A stretch of DNA of 64,000 nt from Solirubrobacteraceae bacterium (GTDB lineage: Bacteria; Actinomycetota; Thermoleophilia; Solirubrobacterales; Solirubrobacteraceae): the NCBI GenBank assembly GCA_035540675.1, contig DATLGB010000223.1, positions 4,502 through 68,501 on the forward strand, written 5' to 3'. Of this stretch, positions 19,681-49,427 are shown one piece after another (position 1 is the first letter of the stretch; every line of letters begins with the position of its first letter). A program made the translations under genes and the position numbers. The notes beneath the pieces are model-generated. The model was given only the letters and a program-made list of their open reading frames with translations. It made no database searches and had not been told where the DNA came from.

Positions 19681-19753
19681 GCCCCTGTAGCTCAATTGGC
19701 AGAGCAGCGGACTCTTAATCCGAAGGTTGAAGGTTCGATTCCTTCCGGGGGCA
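19681..19753 (+). tRNA. tRNA-Lys (anticodon CUU)
   Basis: Hand-folded cloverleaf. Acceptor gcccctg/cgggggc (one G-U), D arm gctc-aattggca-gagc, anticodon loop cuCUUaa, T arm gaagg-ttcgatt-ccttc, discriminator A. CCA not encoded. Confidence 0.9.
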
Positions 19754-26880: not shown

Positions 26881-27678
26881 CTAGGCGGGCGGCTCGCCGT
26901 AGCGGGCGGGGGCGACGAACGCCATCCGGCCCGCCCCCGCGCCCCGGCCCGGCTCGCGCAGATGGGCAGGGATCTCCACCTGCTTGCGGTGGTCCTCGCC
27001 GAACAGCGCCAGCGGGTCGCCGCACATCTCCACGATGCGCGAGACCGTGCGCTCGCCGATCTGCTCGGTCAGCGCGTCGGGCTTTAGGTTCGTCGTCAGC
27101 AGCAGCGCCCGCTCCTCCTCGTAGCGCGCGTTGACGATCGAGTACAGCTGCTCGAGGACCCACTCGCTCGTGCGCTCGGCGCCGACGTCGTCGACGTGCA
27201 GCAGGTCGACGGCCGCGAGCGTGTCGAGCAGCTGCAGGTAGGACAGGTCGGAGCCCTCGTCGTAGGTCTTGCGCAGCTCGGCCAGCAGGCGCGGCAGCGA
27301 GTAGATGACGACGCTGCGCCCGCGCTCGAGCGCCGCGCGCGAGATCAGCATCGCCAGCGTCGTCTTGCCCGTCCCGACGTCGCCGGTCAGCCACAGCCCC
27401 TTGCCGGCATCGAGGTTGGCGTCGAGGTCGCGGACGTACTGGCGCACCGGCCGCACGACGTGGTCGTCGATCAGCGTCACCGGCGGCGTGGCGAAGGACA
27501 CGTGGCGGTACTTCTTCGGGATCACCGACGACAGCCGGCGCGCCTTCGCCTTGGCGATCCGCTCCGGCCGGCAGCGGCACTCGCGCGTCGTCCGCGCCTC
27601 CGTGTCGACGACGAAGCCGGAGCCGTCGCACTCGTCGAAGCGGCAGCGCGAGCCGCCGTGGTCGACGGTGAGCCTCAT
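26881..27678 (-). CDS. DnaC/DnaI/IstB-like AAA+ helicase-loader candidate with N-terminal Cys cluster
   Basis: ATGA overlap with the dnaB stop. CRFDECDGSGF..CRC zinc-like N-terminus, Walker A GDVGTGKTT, Walker B LLHVDDVG. Confidence 0.75.
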   Translation of the reverse strand: MRLTVDHGGSRCRFDECDGSGFVVDTEARTTRECRCRPERIAKAKARRLSSVIPKKYRHVSFATPPVTLIDDHVVRPVRQYVRDLDANLDAGKGLWLTGDVGTGKTTLAMLISRAALERGRSVVIYSLPRLLAELRKTYDEGSDLSYLQLLDTLAAVDLLHVDDVGAERTSEWVLEQLYSIVNARYEEERALLLTTNLKPDALTEQIGERTVSRIVEMCGDPLALFGEDHRKQVEIPAHLREPGRGAGAGRMAFVAPARYGEPPA

Positions 27679-30353
27679 GCGTAGCGGTCGGGGTCGCGGA
27701 TCCCGGGCATGAAGCGCGGGTACTCGTGCTGGAACACGAGCGGCACCGTCCCCAGCCCGCCGTTGCGGTGCTTGGCGATGATCAGCTCGGCCTCGCCCTG
27801 GCGCTCGGAGTCGTCCTCGTAGTACTCCTCGCGGTAGATGAACATCACCAGGTCGGCGTCCTGCTCGATCTGCCCGGACGAGCGCAGGTCGGACAGCATC
27901 GGGCGCTTGTCGTGGCGCTGCTCGACGGCGCGGTTGAGCTGCGACAGCGCCACCACCGGCACCGACAGCTCGCGCGCGAGCGTCTTGAGCCCCTTGGAGA
28001 TCTCGCCGATCTGCTCGACCACGCTGTCCGAGCGCGAGTCCGCGCGCATGAGCTGCAGGTAGTCGACGACGACCAGCCCGAGCTTGCCGTCCACCTGCGT
28101 CGACAGCCGCCGCGCCTTCGCGCGGATGTCGAGCACGGACAGGTCGCTCGAGTCGTCCACCCACAGCGGCGCCGAGTTGAGCGCCTTCAGCGCGCCCGTC
28201 ACCTTCTGCCAGGAGACCTTGCCGCGCCGCAGGTCGTTGCCTTTGATCGAGCCCTGCGACGCGATGAACCGCTGCGCCAGCTCGGACTCGGACATCTCGA
28301 GCGAGAACATCACCGCCGGCCGGTCGAAGCGCACGGCCGCGTTCTCGAGGAAGTTGGCGGCGAGCGCGCTGTTGTGCACGACCACGTCGCCCGCGACGAA
28401 GTTGTGATCGCCCGGCACCGTCAGGTCGAACGTCTCGCGCTCGCCCACCGGCTCGACCGCGACGATCTCGTCCCACCACACGTCCGACGTCGCCAGCTGG
28501 CGCAGCTCCTCGTCGCCGATCGCGTCCGCGAGCTTGGCCAGCTGCGGCCGCGACACGCCCCGCGTGCCGACGTGCCAGTTGTGGTTGCGCGGGTGCCCGG
28601 CGGCGGCCGACACCTCCGCCCACGAGCGCTCGCCCTTCGCGGCTGAGACGAGCCGCCAGATGCCGGCCGGGACGGTGTCGACGTTCGTCTTGGACCGCAC
28701 CGACCCGAGGCCGGCGACGACGCGAGCGAGGCAGCTCCGCTTGCCGCACACCGCAACCTGCTCGGCGAACGCACGCAGGTCCTCCTGGCCCGTGATCAGC
28801 ACCTCGAGCGCGACCTTCCCGGTGCCCTCGTAGACCGGCCGGCGCAGCTCGCGCAGCTTGGAGACGATGCCCAGCCGTAGCAGCAGGTGCTGGACGTCGC
28901 GCGCCAGCCGCTCGCTGATCGTGCTGTAGCCGACCTGCCACAGCCGGTCACTCGCGTAGACGTGGCCGTCGCAGCCGTAGAGCACCGACAGGAAGCGCGC
29001 GATGCGCCCGCGGTCGAGGCCGAACACCATCTCCGGGACGAACTTCGACTCCGACCGCGTGCCCCAGATGCCGTGCCGCTCGCACAGCTCGCGCACCGGG
29101 TTCGGCCGCGTGCGGTCGCCCGTGCTGATCGTCCCGGTGCCCCAGCCGGCGGCCGGGACGTGCAGGCGCGCGCCCATCGCCTCGGCCGCCTCGGCCACCT
29201 CGTCGACCACCGGCGAGTCCGGCCCCCAGCAGAACCGCGGGGTCCGCTCGGTCAGGTTGCCGTCGGCGAGCAGGGCCGCGAGCATGACCAGCTCGGCGTC
29301 GGGCATCGTCTGCTCGACCACCGGCGCGGGCAGGGTCCGCGGCACCGCGATCCGGTCTCCCGGCGCCAGCCCTCCGAGCTCGCGCCACCCGTCGATGGTG
29401 AGCAGCGGGTGGTTGGCCGTGGCCTCGATCCGGCGGCCGAGCTTCGTGGTGAGCCGCAGCACCGGCCTGACGCCGTTGCGGAAGCCGGCGGTCACCCGCG
29501 TGGGGCGCAGCCTGAGGTCGGGCCCGAGCGACGCCACCCACGCCTCCTCGGCCCCGTGCTCGAGTTCGGCCACCACGTCCTCGATGCGGCGCCGCGCGCC
29601 GCTCCACGGGTCGTAGACCGGCGTGCCCGCGCTCAGGCACTTGCCCATCGACGGGCGTGCGGCCAGGATGATCAGGTTGCCGGGCTGGAAGCCGCCGGTG
29701 ATCTCGTCGAGGTCGTTGAAGCCGGACGGGGTGCCCGTGACCGTCTTGCCGGCCTCCGACAGCGCGGCGAGCTTCTCGATCTCCTCGTCGAGGACCTCGT
29801 GGATCTTGCGGAAGTCCTTGCGGCGGTCGTCGTGGCCGACCTCGAGGATCGCCCGCTCGGCCTGGTCGACCAGCTCGCGCGGGTCGCCGCCGCGCTCGGC
29901 CACCTGCTGCTGGATGCGGTAGGTGGCGGTGAGGAGGTTGCGCACCAGCGCCGCCTCCTTGACGATCTTGCCGTAGTGCGCCGCGTTGCCGACCACGGGC
30001 GGCGCGGCGGCCAGTGCCTCGATCGCGGCGGCGCCGCCGGCGGCCTCCAGGCTGCCGGACTGCTTGAGCTTCTCGGTGACCGTGAGCTTGTCGACCGGCT
30101 CGCTCTGCTCGTAGAGCGCGAGCATGGCGGCGTAGATCACCGCGTGGCCCGGCCGGTAGAAGTCGTCGGGCTGCAGGTTGAGCTGGACGCGCAGCGCGTA
30201 GAGCGTCTGGTCGGAGAGCAGGATGGCGCCGAGAACGGACTGCTCGGCCTCGATGCTCTGCGGCGGCACGAGCCCGGCGGGCGGCGCGCCGTTGGCGCCG
30301 CTGCCGTTGCTGCCGTTGGTGCGCTCGGGGACGCTCATGGGATCGCCGAGCAT
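27675..30353 (-). CDS. dnaB: Replicative DNA helicase DnaB, interrupted by an intein (extein 469 aa)
   Basis: PPQSIEAEQSVLGAIL, GFxDLD, Walker A split ARPSMGK|C...HN|SALA, IEQDADLVMFIYRE. Confidence 0.95.
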   Translation of the reverse strand: MLGDPMSVPERTNGSNGSGANGAPPAGLVPPQSIEAEQSVLGAILLSDQTLYALRVQLNLQPDDFYRPGHAVIYAAMLALYEQSEPVDKLTVTEKLKQSGSLEAAGGAAAIEALAAAPPVVGNAAHYGKIVKEAALVRNLLTATYRIQQQVAERGGDPRELVDQAERAILEVGHDDRRKDFRKIHEVLDEEIEKLAALSEAGKTVTGTPSGFNDLDEITGGFQPGNLIILAARPSMGKCLSAGTPVYDPWSGARRRIEDVVAELEHGAEEAWVASLGPDLRLRPTRVTAGFRNGVRPVLRLTTKLGRRIEATANHPLLTIDGWRELGGLAPGDRIAVPRTLPAPVVEQTMPDAELVMLAALLADGNLTERTPRFCWGPDSPVVDEVAEAAEAMGARLHVPAAGWGTGTISTGDRTRPNPVRELCERHGIWGTRSESKFVPEMVFGLDRGRIARFLSVLYGCDGHVYASDRLWQVGYSTISERLARDVQHLLLRLGIVSKLRELRRPVYEGTGKVALEVLITGQEDLRAFAEQVAVCGKRSCLARVVAGLGSVRSKTNVDTVPAGIWRLVSAAKGERSWAEVSAAAGHPRNHNWHVGTRGVSRPQLAKLADAIGDEELRQLATSDVWWDEIVAVEPVGERETFDLTVPGDHNFVAGDVVVHNSALAANFLENAAVRFDRPAVMFSLEMSESELAQRFIASQGSIKGNDLRRGKVSWQKVTGALKALNSAPLWVDDSSDLSVLDIRAKARRLSTQVDGKLGLVVVDYLQLMRADSRSDSVVEQIGEISKGLKTLARELSVPVVALSQLNRAVEQRHDKRPMLSDLRSSGQIEQDADLVMFIYREEYYEDDSERQGEAELIIAKHRNGGLGTVPLVFQHEYPRFMPGIRDPDRYA
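28371..29639 (-). mobile_element. DnaB intein (423 aa) with LAGLIDADG homing-endonuclease domain, inserted in the P-loop
   Basis: Block A CLSAGTPV (Cys1 at 29639-29637), block B TANHPLLT, LAGLIDADG motifs LAALLADGNL and LSVLYGCDGHVY, blocks F/G FDLTVPGDHNFVAGDVVVHN, +1 Ser. Confidence 0.9.
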
Positions 30354-30460: not shown

Positions 30461-31549
30461 TCAGCAGATGCGCGGGAGCGGGTCGCCCGCGAGCATGTCG
30501 ACCACGCGGGACCCGCCGAAGGAGGTCTCGAGCACGACCATGCCCGGGGGCTCCGCGCGGACCTCGCCCACCACCGCGGCGTCGGTCCCCAGCGGATGGG
30601 CGCGCAGCGCCGCCAGCGCCTCCGCCTCCGCCTCCGGCGCCACCACCGCCAGCAGCTTGCCCTCGTTGGCCACGTAGAGCGGGTCGATGCCGAGGATCTC
30701 GCACGCGCCGGCGACGGCGGGACGCACGGGGATGGAGGCCTCGTCGAGCACGATCGCGACCTCGGCGCTCATGGCGAGCTCGTTCAGCACGGTGGCGACG
30801 CCGCCGCGCGTCGGGTCGCTCATGCAGCGCAGGTTCTCGCCCGCGGCGGCGCGCAGGGCGCCGGCGAGCTCGTGCAGCGGCGCCGAGTCGCTGCGCAGGT
30901 CGGCTTCGAGCTCGAGGCCGCCGCGGGCGACCATGATCGCCATCCCGTGATCGCCGATCGTGCCGGAGCACAGCACGCGATCGCCCGGCCGGATCGCCAT
31001 CGGCGAGAGCCGGTGGCCCTCGCGCACGCCGATGCCCGTCGTGCTCACGTACAGGCCGTCGGCCTTGCCGCGCTCGACCACCTTGGTGTCGCCGGTGACG
31101 ATGGCGACGCCGGCGCCGGCGGCCGCTTGCGCCATCGAGGCGACGTAGCGCTGGAGGTCGGAGACCGGCAGCCCCTCCTCGAGGACGACGCCCAGCGCGA
31201 GGAAGCACGGCCGCGCGCCGCTGACGGCGAGGTCGTTGATCGTGCCGTGCACCGCCAGCGAGCCGATGTCGCCGCCCGGGAAGTCGAGCGGCCGGACCAC
31301 GTAGGTGTCCGTCGAGATCGCGAGCGGCGCGCCGCCGGCGTCCACGACGGCGGCGTCGCCGAGCTCGGCCAGCGCCGGGTTGTCGAAGGCTCGCGCGAAG
31401 ACGGTCTCGATCAGGACGTGCGACGAGCGCCCGCCGGCGCCGTGGCTGAGCGTGATCCGCTCATCCATCAGCTTGACGTGCGGGCGACGCCGGCGGCGCT
31501 CGATCGCCTCGAGCACCTCCTCCTCGGAGCGCGTCGTCCTGCCGATCAC
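30461..31549 (-). CDS. hypE: Hydrogenase maturation protein HypE (carbamoyl dehydratase)
   Basis: C-terminal part of ORF 30461..31852. LSHGAGG, GDTKV, C-terminal PRIC. GTG 31549 overlaps the hypD stop (GTGA). Alternative ATG at 31471 (MDERITLSHG). Confidence 0.9.
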   Translation of the reverse strand: MIGRTTRSEEEVLEAIERRRRRPHVKLMDERITLSHGAGGRSSHVLIETVFARAFDNPALAELGDAAVVDAGGAPLAISTDTYVVRPLDFPGGDIGSLAVHGTINDLAVSGARPCFLALGVVLEEGLPVSDLQRYVASMAQAAAGAGVAIVTGDTKVVERGKADGLYVSTTGIGVREGHRLSPMAIRPGDRVLCSGTIGDHGMAIMVARGGLELEADLRSDSAPLHELAGALRAAAGENLRCMSDPTRGGVATVLNELAMSAEVAIVLDEASIPVRPAVAGACEILGIDPLYVANEGKLLAVVAPEAEAEALAALRAHPLGTDAAVVGEVRAEPPGMVVLETSFGGSRVVDMLAGDPLPRIC

Positions 31550-32679
31550 GCCGGCTCCATCGCCGCGTCGCGGCCGGCGCGGCGCTGGAAGCGGCCGAAG
31601 TTGTAGTACGCGGCGCAGGCGCCCTCGCTCGACACCATGCAGGTTCCGATCGGCCGGTCCGGGGTGCAGGCCGTGCCGAACACCTTGCACTCCCACGGCT
31701 TGATCACGCCCTTGAGCACCTCGCCGCACTGGCACGCCTTCGGGTCGGCCACCCGCACGCCGGGGACCGCGAAGCGCACCTCCGCATCCCAGTCGGCGAA
31801 GTCGTCGCGCAGCTTCAGCGCGCTCTGGGAGATGAAGCCCAAGCCACGCCACTCGAACGTCGTCCGCAGCTCCATCGTCTGCGCGATGGCCTGCAGCGCG
31901 AGCGGGTTGCCCTCCTCGCGCACCACGCGCGTGTACTGGTTCTCGACCTCGCTGCGACCCTCGGCGAGCTGCTTGAGCACCTGGTAGACGCCCTGCAGGA
32001 TGTCCAGCGGCTCGAACCCGGCCACGACGACGGGGCGCCCGTGGTCGCGCGCGATCCAGCGGTACGGGCGGGTGCCGATGACCGTCGACACGTGCCCCGG
32101 CCCGAGGAACCCGTCGAGGCGGAGGTCCGGCGAGTCGAGGATCGCTCGGATCGCCGGGATGATCGTCACGTGGTTGGCGAACACGCTGAAGTTGCGGATG
32201 CCCTCCGCGCGGGCGCGCAGCAGCGTCAGGGCCGTCGAGGGCGCCGTGGTCTCGAACCCGATCGCGAAGAACACGACCTCGCGGTCAGGGTTCTCGCGCG
32301 CGACCTTCAGCGCGTCCAGCGGCGAGTAGACCATCCGCACGTCGGCGCCGCGCGCCTTGGCGTCGAGCAGCGAGCCGCGGCTCGCGGGCACCCGCATCAT
32401 GTCGCCGAACGTGGTGAAGATCACCTCGGGGCGCTCGGCGATGGCGACGGCGTCGTCCTGCCGGCCCATCGGGATCACGCAGACGGGGCAGCCGGGGCCA
32501 TGGACCAGCTCGACGTTGGGCGGCAGCAGGTCCTCGATGCCGTGCTTGTAGATCGTGTGCGTGTGGCCGCCGCACACCTCCATCACCTTGTAGCCGCGGC
32601 CGGGATCCACCAGCGCCGCGATCTGCGCCGCCAGGCGCCGGGCGACGTCGCCGTCGCGGTACTCGTCGACGAACCTCAT
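31546..32679 (-). CDS. hypD: Hydrogenase maturation protein HypD
   Basis: MRFVDEYRD, MEVCGGHTH, GPGCPVCV, FxPGHVS-type motif GPGHVSTVIG, C-terminal Cys cluster. Confidence 0.95.
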   Translation of the reverse strand: MRFVDEYRDGDVARRLAAQIAALVDPGRGYKVMEVCGGHTHTIYKHGIEDLLPPNVELVHGPGCPVCVIPMGRQDDAVAIAERPEVIFTTFGDMMRVPASRGSLLDAKARGADVRMVYSPLDALKVARENPDREVVFFAIGFETTAPSTALTLLRARAEGIRNFSVFANHVTIIPAIRAILDSPDLRLDGFLGPGHVSTVIGTRPYRWIARDHGRPVVVAGFEPLDILQGVYQVLKQLAEGRSEVENQYTRVVREEGNPLALQAIAQTMELRTTFEWRGLGFISQSALKLRDDFADWDAEVRFAVPGVRVADPKACQCGEVLKGVIKPWECKVFGTACTPDRPIGTCMVSSEGACAAYYNFGRFQRRAGRDAAMEPA

Positions 32680-34010
32680 GGCCTCCCGATCCGGTCGAGC
32701 AGCAGGTGCGAGATCGTGGCGTGCGCCTCCTGCAGGCGCGGGACGTAGTCGCCGGGGACGCCGATGTGGTGGTCAAGCCAGCCGGCGCCGGCCAGACGGC
32801 CCCCGTCGTAGCCCGTGACGGCGACGGTCAGCATCCCGCGGCGGCGGGCCTCCTCGAGCCCGGCAAGGACGTTCGGCGACGACCCGCTCGTGGAGAACGC
32901 GATCGCCACGTCGCGCGCGCGGCCGAGCGGGATCAGCTGCCGGGCCCAGACGTTCTCGAAGCCGACGTCGTTGGCCACCGCGGTGACCGTCGGCGCGTCG
33001 TCGACGAGCGCGACCGCCGGCCAGCCCGCCGCCTGCGCGTCGAAGGCGAGGTCCTGGGCGTCGGTGGCCGAGCCGCCGTTGCCGAACGCGAGCAGGCGGC
33101 CGCCGGCGTCGAGGCGCGCGCGCACGGCCGCGGCGCACGCCGCGATCGCGTCGGCGTCGATCGTCCGCCGCAGCTCGATGGCGTCGCGCCCCTTGCGCAG
33201 TGTCGACGCGCGCACGTCGGCCAGGACGGCCTCGAGGTCGCGCTCGTCACCTTCGAGGAACGGATACAGGAAGCCCGTCGCCTCCGCCGGCGCGGCCGCG
33301 CGCTCGAGGCGCTCCAGCGCGACGCCGGCGTGGCAGAGCAACCGGTCGCCGGGTGCGACGGGCCCGACGAGGTCCACCGCGACCGTCTCGCGCGCGCCGC
33401 CGTGCTCGACGACCGCCGCCGTCCCCTCCACCGCGACGACCTCGACCTCCACCGCCACGTCGCCGCAGGTCAGGCACGCGTCGTCGAGCAGCCCCGGGTG
33501 CTCGAAGAAGACGTGCACGAGCTCCCACAGCACGTGGTACGTCGTCTCCTGCACCTCCTGGACGATCTCGGGCGCGGCAGCGGGCACCACGAACGCGTGG
33601 TCGGCGGCGAGCCGCTCCGCGCCGGCACCGAGCGCGATCGTCAGCATGCCGCGCCGTCGCGCTTCCTCCAGGAACGCGTCCAGCCGGCCGGGCTCGTGCG
33701 CCATCCCGATCGCGATGTCCTGCGGTCCGCCGAACGCCAGCGCCCGCTCCGGGCCGCCGGCGGGCGCGAGCGCCGGCAGCGCCCGCTTGCCGACGATCAC
33801 GGGGTGCATGAACTCGACCGCCACGTGGGCGGCGTCCGTGACGGCGGCGCCCGCGCCGTGCGCGATCAGCACGCCGCCGCGCGCGAAGGCGCGGGCGAGG
33901 TCGTGGCAGGCGCGCGCCAGCCGGTCCTGCTCGCGCTCGAGGAACGCCTCGAGCACCCGCTCGCGCTCGGCGATCGCGGTGGCGCTGGGACTGGTGGCGG
34001 AGGGCGTCAT
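32676..34010 (-). CDS. Fusion protein: degenerate SIS domain, HypC/HupF-like OB domain, then GmhA-like SIS domain
   Basis: ATG 34010 (ATGA with the hypC stop); its stop overlaps the hypD start (ATGA). The N-terminal SIS lacks S/T motifs (HGAGAAVTDAAHVAVEF). Middle CLTCGDVAVEVEVVAV...GDRLLCHAGVALERL. C-terminal AFGNGGSATDAQDLAFD and AFSTSGSSPNVLAGLEEARRRGMLTVAVTG. Confidence 0.7.
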   Translation of the reverse strand: MTPSATSPSATAIAERERVLEAFLEREQDRLARACHDLARAFARGGVLIAHGAGAAVTDAAHVAVEFMHPVIVGKRALPALAPAGGPERALAFGGPQDIAIGMAHEPGRLDAFLEEARRRGMLTIALGAGAERLAADHAFVVPAAAPEIVQEVQETTYHVLWELVHVFFEHPGLLDDACLTCGDVAVEVEVVAVEGTAAVVEHGGARETVAVDLVGPVAPGDRLLCHAGVALERLERAAAPAEATGFLYPFLEGDERDLEAVLADVRASTLRKGRDAIELRRTIDADAIAACAAAVRARLDAGGRLLAFGNGGSATDAQDLAFDAQAAGWPAVALVDDAPTVTAVANDVGFENVWARQLIPLGRARDVAIAFSTSGSSPNVLAGLEEARRRGMLTVAVTGYDGGRLAGAGWLDHHIGVPGDYVPRLQEAHATISHLLLDRIGRP

Positions 34011-34285
34011 TCGATCGAGGACGACCGCAGGTCGTCGAGCTCCTGCTCGAAGGCCTCGCCGAGCTCGACGAGGAACGCGCGCGTGGCCTCCGCCTCGGCC
34101 TCGTCGATCTTCGACATCGCGAAGCCGACGTGGATGAGCACCCAGTCGCCGACGTCGACGGCGTCGGGGCCGCCGCTGAGCAGGCCGACGTTGATCGCAC
34201 GCCGCACCCCCGAGACCTCCGCCTTGGCGATGTGGTGCTCGGGGTCGACCCACTCTACGATCTGGCCGGGAATTCCTAGGCACAT
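34007..34285 (-). CDS. hypC: Hydrogenase maturation chaperone HypC
   Basis: MCLGIPGQIVEW...GDWVLIHVGFAMSKIDEAEA. C-terminal part of ORF 34007..35698. Confidence 0.9.
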   Translation of the reverse strand: MCLGIPGQIVEWVDPEHHIAKAEVSGVRRAINVGLLSGGPDAVDVGDWVLIHVGFAMSKIDEAEAEATRAFLVELGEAFEQELDDLRSSSIE

Positions 34286-36462
34286 GACGCACGCATCCTC
34301 GCGGCCGCGACCGCAGCTTGTCCATAGGCGATCCCGCCGTCGTTCGGAGGCAGACGCCGGTGGGTCAGGACGCGGAACCCCGCCGCCTCGAGCCGCCGGC
34401 GCAGCGACCGGGCCAGCCGCCGGTTCTGCAGGCACCCCCCGCTGAGCGCGACGGTGTCGCCCGGAGTCGCCGCGGCGGCGCAGGCGGCGGCGAAGGCCGC
34501 GGCGAGGCCCTCGTGCACCGCGGCGGCGATCGCCGCCGCCGGGCGCCCGCCCCGCAGATCGTCGTGCGCGGCCCGCACGAGGTCGCTGCCGCGGATCACG
34601 CCGCCGGCGACCCGGCAGGGATAGGCGCGCGCCTCGGCGTCGCCAGCGAGCTGCTCGAGCTCGATCGCGGCCTGCCCCTCGTAGCTGATCACCTCGCGCA
34701 CGCCGAGCAGCGCCGCGACCGCGTCGAGCAGCCGCCCGGCGCCCGACGACGGGGGCGCGTTGACCGCCAGCGACTGGCGAACGAGCCTCCAGCGCTCCCA
34801 CGGCACCGGGCGCCCCGCCCGCTCGAGGTGCGCCGCGGCCGCGCGCCACGGCTCGCGGATGGCGGCCTCGCCTCCGGGCAGCGGCACCGGCTCGAGGTGC
34901 GCGACGCGCTCGAAGTCCGCCAGGTCGCACCGCAGCAGCTCGCCGCCCCAGAGCGTGCCGTCGGTCCCGTAGCCCGTCCCGTCGAGCACGATCGCCAGCG
35001 CGGGCGCCGTCTCGCCGTGCTCGGCCAGGCAGGCGGCGGCGTGCGCGTGGTGGTGCTGCACGCCGACGAGCTCGGCCTCCTGCTCCAGCGCCCAGCGCGT
35101 CGAGCGGTACTCGGGGTGCAGGTCGTGCGCGACGACCGCCGGCCGAATGCCGAGCATCTCCAGGTACAGGCGCAGGTCGTCGCCGAAGGCGAGCACCGCC
35201 GCCTCCGAGGAAAGGTCGCCGAGGTGCCCCGACGGGAACGCGCGCGCCCCGACCGCGACGCAGAACGCGCTCTTGAGGTCGGCTCCGGCGGCCACCAGCG
35301 GCTCCGGCGCCGCCAGCGGCAACGACAGCGGCGCCGGCGCCAGCCCGCGCGAGCGCCGCAGCGGATGCGCCGCCCGCACCACCGAGTCCTCGCAGCGCCG
35401 CTGGATTGGGCGGTCGTGGCCGAGGAAGGCGTCCGCGATGTCGCGCAGCCGGTCGTGCGCCTCGTCGTCGCCGACCGCGATCGGCTCGTCGCCGCGGTTG
35501 CCGCTGGTCATCACGAGCGGGCCGCCGAAGTCGTGCGCCAGCAGGTGGTGCAGCGGCGTGTAGGGGAGCATCACCCCGAGCTCCCGGGCGCCGGGCGCGA
35601 CCGACGGCGCGACGGGCGCGGCGGCCAGGCGCTCGAGCAGCACGATCGGCCGTGATGGCGCTTGCAACAGCGCCCGCTCGTCCGGCGATACCCGGCACAG
35701 CGCGTCCGGGTCGCCCGTCATCAGCGCGAACGGCTTGGCGTCGCGCGCCTTGCGCGCGCGCAGCCGCGCGACCGCGAGCTCATCGGCGGCGTCGCAGGCG
35801 AGATGCCAGCCGCCGAGGCCCTTCACGGCGAGGATGCCGCCGGCGCGCAGCACCGCGACCGCCTCCTCGAGCGGCATCGACAGGCGCGGCCCGCAGGCGG
35901 GACAGGCGATCGCCTCGGCGTGGAAGCGGCGGTCGGCCGGATCCTCGTACTCCGCCCGGCAGTCGCCGCAGAGGGGAAAGCCGGCCAGGGTCGTCCGCTC
36001 GCGGTCGTAGGGCAGCGCCCGCACGATCGTGAAGCGCGGCCCGCAGTTGGTGCAGGTCAGGAACGGGTAGCGGTGGCGCCGGTCGGCCGGGTCGAACAGC
36101 TCCCGCAGGCAGTCGGCGCACGTCGACAGGTCCGGCCCGATCGCCGGCGCCCCGGCGCCCCCGGCGCTCGTCGCGACGGCGAACCGGCGCTCTCCGCTCG
36201 GCGCCACGGACGTCTGCACGACGCCGTCGAGGGCGGCCGCGGCGGGCGCCTCGGCCACGAGCGCGGTGGCGAACGCATCCAGCGCCGCCGGCGACCCCTC
36301 GACCTCGACCTCGACGCCGGCGGCGGTGTTGCGGACATGGCCGCCGAGGCCGTGCCGGACGGCCAGGCCGTGCACGAAGGGCCGGAACCCCACGCCCTGC
36401 ACGATGCCCGTGATCTCGAGGCGGCGGCGCGCGGCCGGGACTGCGTCGGAGGCGACCGCCAC
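34276..36462 (-). CDS. hypF: Carbamoyltransferase HypF
   Basis: Acylphosphatase-like GIVQGVGFRPFV. Zn fingers CADCLRE..CTNCGPRFT and CGDCRAEY..CPACGPR. YrdC-like and Kae1-like C-terminal domains. Confidence 0.95.
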   Translation of the reverse strand: MAVASDAVPAARRRLEITGIVQGVGFRPFVHGLAVRHGLGGHVRNTAAGVEVEVEGSPAALDAFATALVAEAPAAAALDGVVQTSVAPSGERRFAVATSAGGAGAPAIGPDLSTCADCLRELFDPADRRHRYPFLTCTNCGPRFTIVRALPYDRERTTLAGFPLCGDCRAEYEDPADRRFHAEAIACPACGPRLSMPLEEAVAVLRAGGILAVKGLGGWHLACDAADELAVARLRARKARDAKPFALMTGDPDALCRVSPDERALLQAPSRPIVLLERLAAAPVAPSVAPGARELGVMLPYTPLHHLLAHDFGGPLVMTSGNRGDEPIAVGDDEAHDRLRDIADAFLGHDRPIQRRCEDSVVRAAHPLRRSRGLAPAPLSLPLAAPEPLVAAGADLKSAFCVAVGARAFPSGHLGDLSSEAAVLAFGDDLRLYLEMLGIRPAVVAHDLHPEYRSTRWALEQEAELVGVQHHHAHAAACLAEHGETAPALAIVLDGTGYGTDGTLWGGELLRCDLADFERVAHLEPVPLPGGEAAIREPWRAAAAHLERAGRPVPWERWRLVRQSLAVNAPPSSGAGRLLDAVAALLGVREVISYEGQAAIELEQLAGDAEARAYPCRVAGGVIRGSDLVRAAHDDLRGGRPAAAIAAAVHEGLAAAFAAACAAAATPGDTVALSGGCLQNRRLARSLRRRLEAAGFRVLTHRRLPPNDGGIAYGQAAVAAARMRASCA

Positions 36463-36468
36463 CCGTAC

Positions 36469-36822
36469 CTACGGCGTCGCCGGCCGCGGCAGGTCGGCGC
36501 GCGAGTCGATGTCGGCGGGCGAGGCGGCGGCCGTGCCGGCCTCCGTCGGGCCGCCCGAGGTCGTCTGCTCGGCGGGTGGCGCCGGCTCGCCCACGACCTC
36601 CTGCAGCGCGGTGGCCACCTGGGTGAGCGCCGCGTTGACGTCGCCGAGCGCCTGGCCGATCGGCGCCGTCTGCGACTCGATCGCGCGCACGCCGAACGTC
36701 ACGAGGCCGAGGGTCTTGGAGATGTTGCGCAGCGTCCGGGCGATCGCGATCAGGTAGCCCGCGAGCACGACGACGAGCAGCAGGACCTCGACGAGCGTGA
36801 GGACGATCAGCAGGGTGTTCAC
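36469..36822 (-). CDS. Small single-pass membrane protein, paralog 4 of 4 (117 aa)
   Basis: GTG 36822 (GTGA with the upstream stop). VNTLLIVLTLVEVLLLVVVLAGYLIAIARTLRNISK..., Pro/Ala-rich tail. Ends 7 nt before the hypF start. Confidence 0.6.
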   Translation of the reverse strand: MNTLLIVLTLVEVLLLVVVLAGYLIAIARTLRNISKTLGLVTFGVRAIESQTAPIGQALGDVNAALTQVATALQEVVGEPAPPAEQTTSGGPTEAGTAAASPADIDSRADLPRPATP

Positions 36823-37091
36823 GATTGGCCCCTCCCGGCTTGGCGATGGCGCTCGACTTCCTCGGCGAGCTCGGTTCCACGGGCGACGGTCGCCCCCAGC
36901 AGGTACGACGTCTGCGTGTTCTGGGCGACGAGCTTGCCGGTGTCCCACAGCACGGCCACGCCCTCGTCGATCCGCTTGACCGTGCGGCGCAGCGCCTCGA
37001 GGAGGGCCCACACCACCAGGGCCACCACGAGACCCACCGCGAGCGTGATCCACCACGCGGTCTGGTTCGACGTCATCGCGATCACGGTCAT
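36819..37091 (-). CDS. Small single-pass membrane protein, paralog 3 of 4 (90 aa)
   Basis: Track ORF. ATGA overlap. AWWITLAVGLVVALVVWALLEALRRTVKRIDEG... Confidence 0.6.
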   Translation of the reverse strand: MTVIAMTSNQTAWWITLAVGLVVALVVWALLEALRRTVKRIDEGVAVLWDTGKLVAQNTQTSYLLGATVARGTELAEEVERHRQAGRGQS

Positions 37092-37360
37092 ACGAGCCCC
37101 AGCTTCTTGAGGTAGCCGACGGCGAGGCCCGGAACGGCGCCGCCGAGGCGGCGGGTCGTGGCGAGCTGCTCGACGCCGTCGAGGTTGGTGGCGATGCCCA
37201 CGCCGGCCTGCAGGATGTCCTTCGCGTAGGAGTCGATCTCGCGCGCGGGCGCCATGATCCGCTGGAAGAGCGCGATCACGACGGCGAGCACCACGACGCC
37301 GAGCACGAGCCCGACGATCGCGAGCACGGCGCCGGCGGTCGACACGGCCAGGACGCTCAT
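37088..37360 (-). CDS. Small single-pass membrane protein, paralog 2 of 4 (90 aa)
   Basis: ATG 37360 (ATGA overlap). MSVLAVSTAGAVLAIVGLVLGVVVLAVVIALFQRIMAPAREID... Confidence 0.6.
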   Translation of the reverse strand: MSVLAVSTAGAVLAIVGLVLGVVVLAVVIALFQRIMAPAREIDSYAKDILQAGVGIATNLDGVEQLATTRRLGGAVPGLAVGYLKKLGLV

Positions 37361-37608
37361 CCGAACAGCTTCTCCCGCGCGGCGGCGAGGCTGCGCGTTA
37401 TGCGGTCGACGGTGTGGTTGGTCGTCCGGACCTCCCACAGCGGGTCCGTGTTCGCCGCCGCGCCCGCCAGGGCGCGCGTGATGTCCCCCGCCTGGCGCAC
37501 GATGCGCCGGCCCTCGCCGATGATCACCAGCAGCAGCGTCGCCGCGATCAGCACGACCACGAGCCCGACGCCCCAGCCGACGTACCAGCCGTAGGAGAGC
37601 GCGGTCAC
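37357..37608 (-). CDS. Small single-pass membrane protein, paralog 1 of 4 (83 aa)
   Basis: GTG 37608 (GTGA overlap with the DUF1059 stop). VTALSYGWYVGWGVGLVVVLIAATLLLVIIGEGRRIVRQAGDI... Confidence 0.55.
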   Translation of the reverse strand: MTALSYGWYVGWGVGLVVVLIAATLLLVIIGEGRRIVRQAGDITRALAGAAANTDPLWEVRTTNHTVDRITRSLAAAREKLFG

Positions 37609-37790
37609 TTCGACGGGAGGTCGCGGATCGCGGAGCGCGCGTAGCGGGCCAGCGTCGACGACTGCGAGAGGTCGACGCCGTGGACCTCCTTGGCGTGCTC
37701 GACCGCCTTCGCGAGGACCTCCTCCTCGGTCTCGCCCCGCACCTCGGCCTTGCACAGGACGCCGGCGTCCGCGCACTTGAAGCTCTTCAC
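37605..37790 (-). CDS. DUF1059-type small metal-binding protein (61 aa)
   Basis: GTG 37790 inside ORF 37605..37841. (M)KSFKCADAGVLCKAEVRGETEEEVLAKAVEHAKEVHG. Confidence 0.7.
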   Translation of the reverse strand: MKSFKCADAGVLCKAEVRGETEEEVLAKAVEHAKEVHGVDLSQSSTLARYARSAIRDLPSK

Positions 37791-37806
37791 GACGGGACCT
37801 CCACCG

Positions 37807-37870
37807 TTGACCTCTCCGCTCCCAGGCGGTAGATGTACCATACATACAGTGCCCGGTCCACCCGGACCGG
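37807..37870 (+). promoter_or_regulatory. Candidate sigma70-like promoter, overlapping palindrome and 5'-UTR hairpin in the divergent hydrogenase/hyp intergenic region
   Basis: TTGACC (37807-12), 17-nt spacer, TAGATG (37830-35). Palindrome ATGTA-cca-TACAT (37833-45) in the only AT-rich patch. Hairpin ccggtcc-accc-ggaccgg (37853-70). SD GGGAGGGAG at 37876-84. Confidence 0.3.
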
Positions 37871-37891
37871 CGTGTGGGAGGGAGAGCGACG

Positions 37892-39283
37892 GTGGCGACG
37901 CGAGCGAGGACGTCCGAGAAGACTCCGGCCGAGCGGCTGCTCGACGCCCTCGGCCCGGTCGAGGGGTTCAACCCCGACCATGGCGACTTCGGGTCACCGG
38001 CGCGGATGACGATGGAGGACTACCTCGCGCCCCACGCCGTCGCCGACGAGTCGACGCGCCTCGGCCCGCTCGAGAAGGTGCACCTCTTCTGGTTCGCCGG
38101 GATGAGCTGCGACGGCTGCAGCGTCGCGGTCACCGGCGCGCAGGCGCCGACCCTCGAGGGGCTGCTGATGGGCGCCCACCCGGGCCTGCCGCGCGTCGTG
38201 CTGCACCACCCGGTGGTCAACCTCGAGGCCGGCCCGGCCTACGTCCGCGCGGCCGAGCAGGCGCTCGCGGGAACGCTCGACGCGCCGTACGTGATCGTGC
38301 TCGAGGGTTCGATCAGCGACGAGACGATCCCGTACGCGTTCGGCGGCTACTGGGCGGGCCAGGGCGAGGAGCCCTGGGGGCCCGACGGCGAGCAGCGGAC
38401 CGTCACGGCCGACGAGTGGATCGCACGCATGGCCGACGGCGCCGCGGCGATGATCGCCATCGGCACGTGCGCCACCTGGGGCGGCATCCCGTCGGCGGCC
38501 GGCAACCCGACGGGGGCCATGAGCCTGATGGACTTCCTCGGCCGCGACTACCGCAGCACCTTCGGGGTGCCGGTCATCAACGTCCCGGGCTGCCCGCCGA
38601 TCGGCGACAACTTCACGGAGGCCGTCGCCGCGGTCGTGTACTTCCTGCAGGGCTTCGGGCCGCTGCCGGAGTTCGACGAGCTCGGACGGCCGGCCTGGCA
38701 GTTCGGCGAGACGGTGCACCGCCACTGCACGCGCGGCGCGTACTACGAGGAGGGCAACTTCGCGAAGGAGTACGGCGACAAGGAGTGCCTCGTCGAGCTC
38801 GGCTGCTGGGGCCCGGTCGTCAACTGCAACATCACCTCGCGCGGCGCCATCAACCACCACGGCGGGTGCATGAACGCCGGCGGCCCCTGCATCGGCTGCA
38901 CGATGCCCGGCTTCCCCGACAAGTTCACGCCGTTCTACAAGGCGCCGCCGGGCTCGAAGGTCTCCAGCACGATGTCGCGGATGCTCGGCTCCTTCATCCG
39001 CCCGCTGCGCGAGTACTCGAACGAGCACCTCAACCGGGAGGTGCGCTGGGACCTCGAGGGCCACGTCCCCAGCGGGTGGGCGCGGCGCCAGGAGGAGCCG
39101 GGGCCCATCCGGGCCGTCGGGCACCGCTTCTACGACCGGATGCGCCAGTCGACCGACGGCGCACGGCGCTCCGGCGAGACGTGGGGCAAGCGCGACGAGT
39201 TCACGTTGATGAAGGACCCGTCGCTGGATCGCCGCCTCCCGGGCGGCGAGGAGGAGACGCTCACCATCGACGAGGGGCGCTAG
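37892..39283 (+). CDS. [NiFe]-hydrogenase small subunit, no Tat signal, long hydrophilic C-terminal extension
   Basis: GTG 37892, 7 nt after GGGAGGGAG (track start 37874 also possible). FWFAGMSCDGCS, GTCATWGGIP, PGCPPIGDN, HRHC..C, CLVELGCWGPVVNC, GGCMNAGGPCIGCTMPGFPD. No RRxF motif. Confidence 0.9.
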   Translation: MATRARTSEKTPAERLLDALGPVEGFNPDHGDFGSPARMTMEDYLAPHAVADESTRLGPLEKVHLFWFAGMSCDGCSVAVTGAQAPTLEGLLMGAHPGLPRVVLHHPVVNLEAGPAYVRAAEQALAGTLDAPYVIVLEGSISDETIPYAFGGYWAGQGEEPWGPDGEQRTVTADEWIARMADGAAAMIAIGTCATWGGIPSAAGNPTGAMSLMDFLGRDYRSTFGVPVINVPGCPPIGDNFTEAVAAVVYFLQGFGPLPEFDELGRPAWQFGETVHRHCTRGAYYEEGNFAKEYGDKECLVELGCWGPVVNCNITSRGAINHHGGCMNAGGPCIGCTMPGFPDKFTPFYKAPPGSKVSSTMSRMLGSFIRPLREYSNEHLNREVRWDLEGHVPSGWARRQEEPGPIRAVGHRFYDRMRQSTDGARRSGETWGKRDEFTLMKDPSLDRRLPGGEEETLTIDEGR

Positions 39284-39287
39284 CGCC

Positions 39288-41189
39288 GTGTGCTTCAAGA
39301 ACCTCCCCATCGAGTTCGACGAGGGCGGCGTCGCCACCCTGCGCGGCGGCATCCCCAATCCCTACGCCGTCGAGGTGTCAAAGCCCCACGTGGGGATGAC
39401 CAACGACGAGCAGCGCGAGCAGATCGAGCGCCTCGTCGCGTCCAACGGGCACATCCGCGAGATCAACATGGACCCGGTCACGCGCGTGGCCGGCGCCATC
39501 GCGCTCAACATCGCCGCCAACCTCGACGACGGCAAGTACCTCGACGCGCGCTCGCAGGCGACGCTGTTCCGCGGCTACGAGGTGATCCTCATGGGCCGCG
39601 ACCCGCGCGACGCGATCTTCGTGTCCTCGCGCGCGTGCGGCGTCTGCGGCGGCGTCCACGCTCACTGCTCGGCCTACGCGATCGAGATGGCGATGGGCGT
39701 CGCGCCGCCGCCGATGGGGACCGTCGTGCGCAACCTCGGCGAGGCCGCCGAGATGGGCTACGACAACCCGCTGCACCTCTACCTGCTGGCCGGCCCCGAC
39801 TACTCCGAGATCGTCGTCCGCGCCACCAACCCGGAGATCTGGGAGAAGGCGCAGACGTGGAAGTGCCCCGGCGCCGAGCACCACGGCTTCAAGACCATGG
39901 GCGAGCTGATGACGGCGCTGAACCCGCTGACGGGCCGCCTGTACCGCGAAGGACTGGACTTCACCCGGCTGGCGCGCGAGATGTTCGTGCTGCTGCACGG
40001 CAAGTACCCGCACCCGCAGGCGATCGTCCCCGGCGGCGTCACCTCGACGATCTCGCTGCAGACGCTCAACGAGTACCAGGCCAAGCTCGGGCGCATCTTC
40101 GACTACGCCCAGCGCCTGGTCGCGGTGTGGGACGACATCCCGGAGTTCTTCTACGAATGCGACGAGCGCTACAAGCTCGTCGGCTCGCGGCCGGTCAACC
40201 TCGTCGACACCGGCTTCTGGGACGACCCCTACGCCTACGACGCCACGTACGAGAACTGCAACGAGTGGGGCGCGCGCCGCTGGTCGACGCCGGGCGCGAT
40301 CATCGACGGCGAGCTGGTCACGACGCGCCTGACCGACCTCAACATGGGCATCGAGGAGTTCGTCGAGCACTCCTACTACGAGCAGTGGGCGGGCGACCGC
40401 TACGAGACCGACCCGCTCGGCAACCCGCTCTCGCCCTACCACGCGTGGAACAAGCAGACGCTGCCCAAGCCGAGCGGGCGCAGCTGGAAGGACAAGTACA
40501 CCTGGGCCTGCACGCCGCGCTGGGACCGCCACGTCGTCGAGGCCGGCGCCTACAACCGCCTGTTCATGACGGCGCTGGCGCAGCAGCAGCCCGAGAACGA
40601 CTTCATCGAGGCCACCGGCACCGGCATCCGCATGTCGATCCCCAAGGGCTACACGAAGGCCGCCGAGGCCGAGTGGCGGATCCCGGACTCCTGGAACGCG
40701 TTCGAGCGCAACCGGGGGCGCGCCTACCACTACCTGTTCTCGCAGCTCGTCGGCCTGTCGAGCCTGCTCGAGGCCTACAAGCTCTTCCGCGCGGGTGAGA
40801 CGCGGGTCGCCGCGCTGAACTCCAAGGAGCTCGAGAAGGCGATGCCGCGCGACGAGCGGCGCGGCGTCGGCTTCTGGGGCGCCGGCCGGGGCTGGCTGAC
40901 GCACCACATCGTCATGGACAACGGCAAGATCACCAACTACCAGATCAACACCCCGTCGACCATCAACGCCTCGCCGCGCGACCCGTGGGGACAGCCCGGG
41001 CCGTACGAGCAGGCGGTCCAGAACACGCCGATCCTCGAGAAGTTCTCGAGTCCCGACGAGTTCACGTCGATCGACATGCTGCGGGCGCTGCGGTCGTTCG
41101 ACCCGTGCATGCCGTGCACGACCCACACGGCCACCGGCAACGGCACCGTGATCGGCCAGGTGAACACCTGCTCGTGCGGCGCCGACTGA
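39288..41189 (+). CDS. [NiFe]-hydrogenase large subunit (subgroup unassigned)
   Basis: L1 RACGVCGGVHAHC, L2 RSFDPCMPCTTH followed by a 20-aa cleavable-type tail. GC3-rich from the GTG at 39288. Atypical DPVTRVAGA and GAGRGWLTHH. Confidence 0.9.
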   Translation: MCFKNLPIEFDEGGVATLRGGIPNPYAVEVSKPHVGMTNDEQREQIERLVASNGHIREINMDPVTRVAGAIALNIAANLDDGKYLDARSQATLFRGYEVILMGRDPRDAIFVSSRACGVCGGVHAHCSAYAIEMAMGVAPPPMGTVVRNLGEAAEMGYDNPLHLYLLAGPDYSEIVVRATNPEIWEKAQTWKCPGAEHHGFKTMGELMTALNPLTGRLYREGLDFTRLAREMFVLLHGKYPHPQAIVPGGVTSTISLQTLNEYQAKLGRIFDYAQRLVAVWDDIPEFFYECDERYKLVGSRPVNLVDTGFWDDPYAYDATYENCNEWGARRWSTPGAIIDGELVTTRLTDLNMGIEEFVEHSYYEQWAGDRYETDPLGNPLSPYHAWNKQTLPKPSGRSWKDKYTWACTPRWDRHVVEAGAYNRLFMTALAQQQPENDFIEATGTGIRMSIPKGYTKAAEAEWRIPDSWNAFERNRGRAYHYLFSQLVGLSSLLEAYKLFRAGETRVAALNSKELEKAMPRDERRGVGFWGAGRGWLTHHIVMDNGKITNYQINTPSTINASPRDPWGQPGPYEQAVQNTPILEKFSSPDEFTSIDMLRALRSFDPCMPCTTHTATGNGTVIGQVNTCSCGAD

Positions 41190-41202
41190 GTCGCGGCGGC
41201 GC

Positions 41203-41688
41203 GTGATCCTCGTCGCCGGGGTCGCCGAGCTCTACCAGGGCGACCTCGACCTCGGGCGCGTCGCCGTCGCGCGGCTGCAGGAGGCCGGCCTCGGCGACGA
41301 CGTGCGGGTGGAGGAGCTCTCCTACGGCGCCGTGGCCGTGACGCAGCGGCTGCAGGAGCTGCGGCCGGACGCACTCGTCCTGATCGCGGCGCACCCGCGC
41401 GGCCGCGAGCCCGGCAGCGTCGAGCGGCGCGACGTCGGCCCCAGCGACCTCCCCGCGGCCGAGCTGCAGACGGCCATCGGCGACGCGATCACCGGCTACG
41501 TGACGGTCGACCTGCTCGTCGAGGTGGCGACGGCGCTGGAGGCGCTGCCGCCGCGAGTGGTCGCCATCGAGGTCGAGCCGGCGCGGGTCGAGCCGGTCGA
41601 CGAGCTGTCCGAGCCGGCGCGGGCGGGGCTCGAGCGGGCGCTCGAGCTCGTGCGCACGGAGGTCGAGCGCCTGCGGGCGCGCAGCTAG
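41203..41688 (+). CDS. Degenerate HyaD/HupD-family hydrogenase maturation protease-like protein
   Basis: Fold-level resemblance (ILVAGVAELYQGDLDLGRVAV...ALVLIAAHP...). By my alignment the GNxxxxD(D/E)GxG motif and the Glu/Asp/His metal ligands are not conserved. Confidence 0.55.
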   Translation: MILVAGVAELYQGDLDLGRVAVARLQEAGLGDDVRVEELSYGAVAVTQRLQELRPDALVLIAAHPRGREPGSVERRDVGPSDLPAAELQTAIGDAITGYVTVDLLVEVATALEALPPRVVAIEVEPARVEPVDELSEPARAGLERALELVRTEVERLRARS

Positions 41689-45336: not shown

Positions 45337-45346
45337 AATCGCGCCC

Positions 45347-46834: not shown

Positions 46835-46835
46835 C

Positions 46836-49423: not shown

Positions 49424-49427
49424 CCGG

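Follow-up and report, generated by a model that had tools for sequence, protein, structure and literature searches.

What is done by a protein in which a HypC-like chaperone module is held between two halves related to the sedoheptulose-7-phosphate isomerase GmhA, and why does its gene stand inside a hydrogenase maturation operon? The question is raised by a stretch of 64,000 nucleotides from a Solirubrobacteraceae bacterium (GenBank assembly GCA_035540675.1, contig DATLGB010000223.1, positions 4,502 to 68,501), referred to below as the window. The gene lies between hypC and hypD and encodes a 444-amino-acid (aa) protein composed of an N-terminal SIS half, a HypC-like module with an oligonucleotide/oligosaccharide-binding (OB) fold and a C-terminal SIS half. 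It is probably a lineage-specific fusion of three proteins that form one accessory maturation complex for an aerobic [NiFe]-hydrogenase of group 1h. The triple fusion is lineage-specific; elsewhere among bacteria, the parts are encoded by separate genes that lie next to each other.

Group 1h hydrogenases are the main biological sink of atmospheric H2 and sustain dormant soil bacteria. The assembly of their cofactor under oxygen is poorly understood; the source of the iron, the source of the CO ligand and the roles of extra HypC paralogues are listed as open questions in a review (PMC12134894).

Domain Architecture

The 444-aa protein is matched by Pfam SIS_2 (PF13580) in two stretches (E-value 6.3e-25, 88.2 bits) and by Pfam SIS (1.5e-6). 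Taken alone, the N half passes the SIS_2 threshold, with 29.9 bits against a gathering score of 27. The two halves are paralogous, with 35% identity and an E-value of 5e-10. Residues 186-240, between them, match HupF_HypC (PF01455) with an E-value of 8.7e-11 and 42.2 bits against a gathering score of 28.5; stand-alone homologues of this module score 32-47 bits against the same model. The cut-offs of the NCBIfam models are not reached, at 35.2 bits against 48 for the hypC_hupF subfamily and 100 bits against 352 for the DiaA model NF008138 (1.4e-28). The same applies to the gmhA equivalogs, where the best E-value is 6e-42, yet the scores are 143.3 bits against 209.45 (TIGR00441) and 141.5 bits against 276 (NF010546). 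A sequence search of the PDB gave GmhA structures on residues 292-438 (about 1e-28) and the HypC of T. kodakarensis on residues 186-240 (7e-7).

The relation of the middle segment to HypC is also found by profile and pairwise comparison. A profile of 62 HypC-like modules aligns with a profile of 66 canonical HypC proteins with an hhalign probability of 97.6% (E-value 3.6e-12), and BLASTP of the barrel of the operon's own canonical HypC against the internal module gives 37% identity over 60 residues (E-value 2e-4). The original prediction, made from the letters of the DNA, had placed a HypC/HupF-like segment at 33306-33479; this agrees to a few bases with 33315-33476, and the domain scan it called for, together with hhalign and Foldseek, bears the assignment out. 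The motifs quoted in it are all present: CLTCGD at residues 179-184, LLCHAGVAL at 224-232, GNGGS at 310-314 and STSGSS at 373-378.

An AlphaFold model of the full-length protein, built with 119 sequences, is one compact protein with a mean predicted local distance difference test score (pLDDT) of 93.4 and a predicted template modelling score (pTM) of 0.86. It has an alpha/beta, five-strand barrel (187-235), alpha/beta layout, and the confidence dips only at the CxxC loop and in the linker 241-250. Residues 172-243 modelled alone have a pLDDT of 83.9, and the six best PDB matches of this model in Foldseek are all HypC (2Z1C, 3VYR-3VYU), with a target-normalised template modelling score (TM-target) of up to 0.93 and a root-mean-square deviation (RMSD) of 0.9-2.5 Å. 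T. kodakarensis HypC is the closest, at 0.9 Å over 52 residues with 40% identity. The C half matches GmhA and DiaA structures with a TM-target of 0.75-0.91 (0.80 for 2YVA). When the full-length model was searched against the PDB, only single-SIS (GmhA/DiaA) or tandem-SIS (GlmS) matches were obtained and no SIS-OB-SIS protein, so there is no template for the placement of the barrel on the SIS pair.

Complementary SIS Halves

GmhA holds its catalytic zinc with His61, Glu65 and His183 from one monomer and Gln175 from its neighbour (PMC5387315). All four ligands are conserved and required for activity (PMC5705639), and the active sites are built from residues of several chains (PMC11056994). In the 444-aa protein, no half contains all four ligands (His, Glu, Gln, His), and the set is complete only across both halves. 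The N half retains the metal ligands H62, E66 and H159, plus H69-P70, E163 and H166, and has lost the phosphate loops, with GAGAA in place of GNGGS and GMAHEPG in place of STSGSS. The C half contains LYPF (248-251), GNGGS (310-314), ND (347-348), STSGSS (373-378), Q427-E428 and H435. In it, the GmhA histidine is replaced by D320, and the helix of the catalytic glutamate is remodelled or six residues shorter, as judged from an alignment to B. pseudomallei GmhA.

This division is kept across the 80 loci described below. H62, E66, H69, P70, H159 and E163 are invariant in all 73 N halves; GNGGS, S/T-T-S-G-x-S, N347-D348 and Q427-E428 are invariant in all 81 C halves, where position 320 is never His. 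The N half had been described as degenerate and the C half as well conserved. Each description holds for one part of the site: the phosphate loops of the N half are indeed lost, but its three metal ligands are 100% conserved, so that it is not merely degenerate, and the C half does keep Q427 and the loops, but has lost the His-Glu-His ligands.

The simplest reading of these alignments is a GmhA-like pseudo-heterodimer in which one composite site would have been kept and the reciprocal site would have decayed. A single composite site is suggested by the complete conservation of ligands and loops in complementary halves. In a model of the M. tuberculosis GmhA monomer, obtained by docking, the substrate is bound by the Gln and the phosphate loops of a single chain (PMC7705670), and an assignment of substrate binding to the C half and of the metal to the N half fits this model. 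The original prediction had argued against a role in heptose metabolism; that sugar-phosphate chemistry is irrelevant does not follow, since the full GmhA-type catalytic set survives in trans.

Four further elements, LYPF (window 33258-33269), H69-P70, E163 and H166, are near-invariant and have no counterpart in the one GmhA alignment examined, which begins at residue 292.

HypC-like Module

Canonical HypC proteins begin with the motif MC[LI][GA][IV]P, with cysteine at position 2. The module has no such N-terminus, its cysteines being residues 179 and 182 of 444. C179, C182 and D184 are invariant in two alignments (A1 and A3), and the same holds for 61 modules taken from the loci and for 120 stand-alone relatives. 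H227, G229 and A231 are invariant in the alignments as well, so the His of the HypC H-x-G-x-A motif (E. coli His51) is present. That the Cys pair is internal had been noted at the outset, and this is correct; its position is not, however, due to the fusion. In all 120 stand-alone relatives, the CxxCxD motif starts at residue 9-43 and never at residue 2, and the internal position is thus a trait of the HypC-like modules and not a by-product of fusion. These stand-alone forms are 67-101 aa long, number at least 2591 proteins and carry the source names HypC or HupF. An equivalence of C179 with HypC Cys2 was considered and rejected; in the alignment register, D184 takes the Cys2 slot and C182 is two residues upstream.

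Every module has a third cysteine, the position of which varies. It stands directly before the His, as C226 does here, in 17 of the 61 modules and 5-9 residues upstream of CxxC in 42; the remaining two have two Cys inside the barrel. The positions are mutually exclusive, as no module has both or neither. The changing place of the third cysteine and the invariance of His and Asp suggest a metal site around the Cys/His pair. In canonical HypC, the Cys/His pair reportedly binds iron, according to Soboh et al. (2013) and to work on E. coli HypC and HybG. The AlphaFold models show no C-terminal helix after the barrel, from the end of strand 5 (235) to residue 259, a stretch in which pLDDT is low at 241-250, and the stand-alone forms stop 5-10 residues past the barrel.

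Distribution and Fusion Series

A protein 100% identical to the 444-aa product (P0001) is found in public data, along with 119 relatives of 429-496 aa that share 63-71% identity with it and have the same three Pfam domains. A library-wide search (E-value of at most 1e-30) gave 196 cluster representatives with several architectures, and at least 534 encoding loci were detected when one genome per species was scanned. The architectures were classified with purpose-built module profiles in 80 of these loci, which span Actinomycetota, Chloroflexota, Dormibacterota, Acidobacteriota, Eremiobacterota, Myxococcota and SAR324. Genes of the hyp or hhy (hydrogenase) type lie within 8 kb in 77 of the 80.

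The most frequent arrangement (33 loci) is that of three separate adjacent genes in the same order, found in Amycolatopsis, Kibdelosporangium, Streptosporangiaceae, Ktedonobacteria and others, complete isolate genomes included. All three parts are fused in 14 loci, which belong to Solirubrobacterales, Thermoleophilaceae, Dormibacterota and a metagenome-assembled genome (MAG) of Nocardioidaceae. Partial fusions occur in both possible ways: the N-SIS half is joined to the HypC-like module, with a separate C-SIS gene, in nine loci (Mycobacterium, Acidimicrobiales, Gaiellales), and the module is joined to the C-SIS half, with a separate N-SIS gene, in two (Nonomuraea, Saccharopolyspora). The two SIS halves are fused without an insert in 17 loci, three of which have a HypC-like gene between hypC and hypD, and separate N-SIS and C-SIS genes without a HypC-like module occur in three. 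In one more locus (L055), the SIS genes are separate and the module is frameshifted, and in another (L026), the contig ends within the C half. A relaxed search for hidden HypC-like genes in the loci that apparently lack a module gave only canonical HypC and the frameshifted copy of L055. In that copy (8038-8608), the module is split over two frames, which is either a MAG frameshift error or a pseudogene. Fusions in every pairwise combination are a classical signature of proteins that work together and argue that the three modules act as one complex.

Other domains are also fused to the SIS pair, namely glutaredoxin (P0153, P0167) and the N-terminus of HypF (P0205, P0265). A glutaredoxin-like gene lies directly 3' of the pair in three loci without a HypC-like module (L036 1313-1576, L051 8881-9369 and L080 8968-9345). 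The glutaredoxin-like proteins, fused or adjacent, have the motifs SCPF/Y and GRxC and belong to Acidobacteriota and Eremiobacterota lacking the module, where the SIS pair may have them as its alternative partner. The data support a SIS pair as the core, with thiol-rich or Hyp proteins as interchangeable partners, and the fusion under study, together with the other SIS-pair fusions, supports a tie of the protein to the Hyp machinery.

Some individual loci deserve mention. In P0205 (664 aa) and P0265 (496 aa), the SIS pair is followed by the HypF acylphosphatase and zinc-finger domains, either as a true fusion or as a read-through gene call; in L036 and L054, the SIS-pair gene and hypF abut. 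In L005 (466-7522, Thermoleophilaceae), two tandem pairs of small and large subunit genes lie beside the fused gene, with no hypF between.

The gene is, as had been expected, a genuine fusion. An artefact of sequencing or assembly might be suspected from the split genes of most other lineages, but the identical protein, the 119 relatives of the same domain content and length, the 14 independent fully fused genome loci and the continuous, confident AlphaFold model contradict it, and a frameshift artefact split in all relatives is not what was found. A chance likeness of the middle segment to HypC is at odds with its identification by Pfam, hhalign and Foldseek alike. Both ideas are almost certainly wrong and were rejected.

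Genomic Context

The gene is part of an operon with the order hypF-hypC-X-hypD-hypE, where X is the 444-aa gene, and the hydrogenase genes (37874..41189, plus strand) are divergent from it (Table 1). As originally predicted, the open reading frame (ORF) overlaps both neighbours, and both overlaps were located on the minus strand: its ATG shares ATGA with the TGA of hypC, and its TGA shares ATGA with the ATG of hypD, just upstream of whose start is a GGGAGG sequence. A longer ORF, reaching 34325, was rejected; it runs through hypC in another frame, and homologues begin at or near M1 of the 444-aa version.

Table 1. Location of the fusion gene, its modules and motifs and the surrounding hyp and hydrogenase genes in the window.
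Feature	Position	Strand	Evidence or note
Whole gene, N-SIS / HypC-like / C-SIS fusion protein, 444 aa	32676..34010	minus	stop codon 32676-32678
N-terminal GmhA-like SIS half, residues 15-175	33486..33968	minus	Pfam SIS_2 on half alone 6.5e-7
HypC-like OB-fold module, residues 176-243; five-strand barrel 187-235	33282..33485	minus	Pfam, hhalign, Foldseek
C-terminal GmhA-like SIS half, residues 244-444	32679..33281	minus	NCBIfam gmhA, GmhA alignment, Foldseek
C179-L-T-C182-G-D184 motif, directly before barrel strand 1	33459..33476	minus	conservation
C226-H227; H227 equivalent to the conserved HypC His (HxGxA), C226 the 'third Cys'	33330..33335	minus	conservation
hypF, first gene of the operon	34276..36462	minus	Pfam HypF_C_2, Sua5_yciO_yrdC, zf-HYPF, Acylphosphatase
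Canonical hypC, MCLGIPGQ..., 92 aa, coupled 5' of the fusion gene	34007..34285	minus	ORF translation
hypD, translationally coupled 3' of the fusion gene	31546..32679	minus	Pfam HypD 1.7e-157
hypE, last gene of the operon, start approximate	about 30461..31549	minus	Pfam AIRS + AIRS_C
[NiFe]-hydrogenase small subunit	within 37874-39283	plus	Pfam Oxidored_q6 + NiFe_hyd_SSU_C
[NiFe]-hydrogenase large subunit	39288-41189	plus	Pfam NiFeSe_Hases

The best solved-structure match of the large subunit is 5AA5, the actinobacterial-type HofG of R. eutropha, with an E-value of 4.7e-144, and the next is at about 1e-55. Since 5AA5 is so far ahead of other solved hydrogenases, the enzyme is assigned to group 1h, the high-affinity oxygen-insensitive class. 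According to Pfam, the subunit genes are then followed by a gene for a HycI-type protease. Among the ORFs scanned around the hydrogenase cluster, there was no hypA or hypB. No HypX was present among the window ORFs scanned with Pfam, a scan that was not exhaustive and had the rest of the genome outside it. In S. avermitilis, a group 1h cluster and hypX are both present (PMC4767420). The simple idea that the fusion protein replaces HypX is neither supported nor excluded.

The window has a G+C content of about 75%, and the closest relatives are genomes of Solirubrobacterales and Thermoleophilia. A search of the whole window against Rfam gave a single tRNA match (19681-19753, plus strand) and nothing RNA-based that is involved with the gene. 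The divergent hypF and hydrogenase operons are separated by a 1.4-kb gap with lower codon-position bias, containing a gene for a DUF1059 'small metal-binding protein' (78 aa, 37605-37841, minus strand, Pfam 3.7e-15) and three short ORFs (36469-37056, 36819-37091 and 37088-37438, minus strand), none of which matches a family and each of which has one hydrophobic helix. Downstream of the large subunit (41164-44350 and 44828-47270, plus strand), several ORFs have a strong coding bias and no Pfam match; the ORF at 44828-45667 (plus strand) has a MinD/ParA-type P-loop. The dnaB gene (27675-30353, minus strand) is interrupted by an intein with a LAGLIDADG homing endonuclease (Intein_splicing 3.9e-20, LAGLIDADG_3 5.2e-17) and is followed by an IstB/DnaC-like ATPase gene at about 26881-27600. 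The window also encodes a 942-aa protein with 12 RTX calcium-binding repeat matches (56110-58935, minus strand) and a 916-aa BNR/Asp-box protein with cell-wall-binding CWB2 repeats (49170-51917, plus strand).

Possible Function and Alternative Explanations

In the favoured model of an accessory maturation complex, the SIS halves would pair like two protomers of the GmhA tetramer. His62, Glu66 and His159 would come from the N half, and Gln427 and probably the sugar-phosphate-binding loops from the C half, which would give one complete metal and phospho-ligand site per pair and a dead reciprocal site. The HypC-like barrel would bear a metal site of its own, most likely for iron, with Cys179, Cys182, the third Cys, His227 and possibly Asp184 as candidate ligands; this may be a more elaborate form of the iron site that Cys2 and His51 make in canonical HypC. 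Through the barrel, the complex would communicate either with HypC-HypD, on which Fe(CN)2CO is assembled, or with the precursor of the large subunit. Its putative task is the supply or protection of a component that becomes limiting during maturation in air. The direct role in Fe(CN)2CO handling that the original prediction proposed is still an inference.

The main alternatives differ in what they make of the SIS pair. The GmhA fold could serve as a non-catalytic, oligomeric platform in the manner of DiaA, the DnaA initiator-associating protein, gathering Hyp proteins with the barrel as a docking piece and the 'catalytic' residues in a structural or ligand-sensing role. DiaA is among the best fold and sequence matches (Foldseek 2YVA, NCBIfam NF008138), the N half lacks phosphate loops and, as one would expect of a hub, the pair has varying partners (HypC-like, glutaredoxin, HypF). 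But DiaA and HobA do not have the catalytic Glu of GmhA (PMC4697000), which is kept here in all 73 N halves, the DiaA model is missed by a wide margin of bits and it would be difficult to account for the 100% conservation of all GmhA catalytic and ligand residues, each in one of the two halves, if there were no functional site. Such an adaptor is therefore unlikely, though it deserves to be kept in mind. A thiol-disulfide relay is considered improbable. In it, the CxxC would be a redox-active dithiol keeping the cysteines of the Hyp proteins (HypC Cys2, the HypD CxxC cascade and the HypE C-terminal Cys) reduced in air, and the SIS pair would be regulatory or ligand-binding. It would account for the glutaredoxin-like genes fused to the pair or directly after it in lineages without the HypC-like module, and a putative glutaredoxin is present in acidobacterial group 1h loci (PMC5900883); these hydrogenases also mature in air. 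However, a glutaredoxin occurs in only three of the 20 loci without an intact HypC-like module nearby, and the CxxC sits in a loop ahead of a beta strand, in company with an invariant Asp, an invariant His and a third Cys that changes place, a pattern met more typically in metal ligation. In canonical HypC, moreover, the Cys/His pair reportedly binds iron, as noted above.

Improbable too, and the least likely of these three, is an ordinary sedoheptulose-7-phosphate isomerase that supplies heptose for the envelope or for glycoproteins and is merely located in a hydrogenase cluster. The source names ('D-sedoheptulose 7-phosphate isomerase'), the gmhA models as the strongest family matches (6e-42) and the full set of GmhA catalytic residues in trans speak for it. 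It is put last by scores under every gmhA equivalog cut-off, by catalytic residues divided so that neither half alone has a complete site, and by the strict co-location and translational coupling with hyp genes across seven phyla. The fusions to the HypC-like barrel, glutaredoxin or HypF do not agree with it either, and expression follows the hydrogenase cluster both in M. smegmatis, where gmhA (MSMEG_2706) is listed with the hyp genes that are induced (PMC5445863), and in A. ferrooxidans (PMC7735108).

A different kind of chemistry at the composite site is very doubtful. With Fe or Ni in place of Zn, the site might oxidatively cleave a sugar-phosphate ene-diol(ate) in air and release CO, which would pass to iron on the tethered HypC-like Cys3-His site and then to HypCD. 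Acireductone dioxygenase and quercetinase cleave related substrates at His/Glu metal sites and release CO. The anatomy of the protein is compatible with such a reaction, and nothing is specific for it. If true, the [NiFe] cofactor could obtain its CO ligand in air by a second route that does not depend on HypX, and the conservation of a sugar-phosphate isomerase fold in the gene clusters of air-maturing hydrogenases would be explained.

Several points weigh against the accessory maturation complex as drawn above. About a fifth of the loci have a SIS pair without a HypC-like module within 8 kb, and the barrel is accordingly not essential to the core function. The assignment of the phosphate loops to a chain follows the docked monomer model (PMC7705670) and not a statement from a crystal structure; if the loops belong to the His-Glu-His chain, there is no complete GmhA site here. 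At position 151 of the N half, Q and K are about equally frequent across relatives, and H435 of the C half is only 85% conserved. The pattern of the third Cys reflects few independent lineages, and a redox dithiol instead of a metal site is conceivable for the CxxC, in line with the fusions to glutaredoxin. The literature search found no experiment on any member of the SIS/HypC-like set.

Relation to the Literature and Significance

Genes named 'gmhA' have been noted in group 1h/2a clusters without an assigned function (PMC11879354, PMC5900883, PMC5445863, PMC7735108, PMC12727194), in accordance with the starting observation that SIS/GmhA-like genes accompany hydrogenase clusters. For their presence there, the passage concerned in PMC11879354 cites a 2020 thesis. 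The order reported for Frankia, hypF-hypC-'hypothetical'-gmhA-hypE-hypC-hypD (PMC11879354), matches the mycobacterial split arrangement. The three-domain architecture is already visible in precomputed Pfam annotations. In the full-text literature, no description was found of the N-SIS partner half, the complementary residues, the CxxC HypC subfamily or the fusion series, and a 2025 review of [NiFe] cofactor assembly does not mention 'gmhA'.

The family is found in at least 534 species-level genomes; its names, a heptose-pathway enzyme or plain 'HypC', amount to systematic mis-annotation. The vague notion that 'gmhA' is often found in the operons can give way to a defined complex of three parts, in which particular residues offer themselves for mutation: H62, E66, H159, Q427, the serine phosphate loops, C179, C182, D184, C226 and H227. 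The single-polypeptide version would be convenient for purification and structure determination.

Comparison with Known Systems

HypC, HybG, HupF and HoxL (PF01455) are small OB-fold chaperones that hold the Fe(CN)2CO iron jointly with HypD and pass it on to the large subunit. The module shares with them the five-strand barrel, a profile score above the gathering score, the His of H-x-G-x-A, the location in hyp operons and the source names 'HypC' and 'HupF'. It differs in the absence of an N-terminal Cys2, the C-x-x-C-x-D motif starting 8-42 residues in even in stand-alone genes, in the constant third Cys and in the lack of a predicted C-terminal helix. Unlike HypC, it is genetically tied, and here covalently, to a SIS pair, with a canonical HypC (MCLGIPG) encoded alongside.

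Further maturation proteins, beyond HypA-F, are known from the air-maturing, O2-tolerant hydrogenases of proteobacteria, namely HupF/HoxL, HupK/HoxV and HypX, and the set described here resembles them in being such an addition. HupF/HoxL is a HypC paralogue (PMC12134894, PMC3534401), whereas HupK/HoxV and HypX have no sequence relation to the set, and the SIS pair is without a counterpart in those systems.

GmhA (TIGR00441; PDB 2X3Y, 2I22, 5I01) is a homotetrameric Zn enzyme with inter-subunit active sites. Both halves of the fusion protein have the GmhA/SIS_2 fold, and all metal ligands and phosphate-binding residues are present somewhere in it and invariant. In contrast to GmhA, the H/E/H ligands are found in the N half only, and the Q, the phosphate loops and ND in the C half only; the near-invariant LYPF, H69-P70, E163 and H166 appear to be extra, and the context is hydrogenase maturation and not heptose synthesis. 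DiaA and HobA show that the GmhA fold can act as an oligomeric platform for protein binding and have similar fold-match scores, but they have lost the catalytic residues, all of which the SIS pair keeps in trans, and the pair has no relation to replication.

The 'gmhA' genes of group 1h/2a clusters in M. smegmatis (MSMEG_2706), Frankia (FsymDg_2476), Acidobacteria and A. ferrooxidans are treated in the literature as a lone heptose-pathway enzyme of unknown relevance. They belong to the same family as the protein described here. The mycobacterial and Frankia 'gmhA' is the C-SIS gene, and the 'hypothetical protein' preceding it fits the N-SIS half fused to the HypC-like module, as seen on comparing locus L023 with the published order (PMC11879354).

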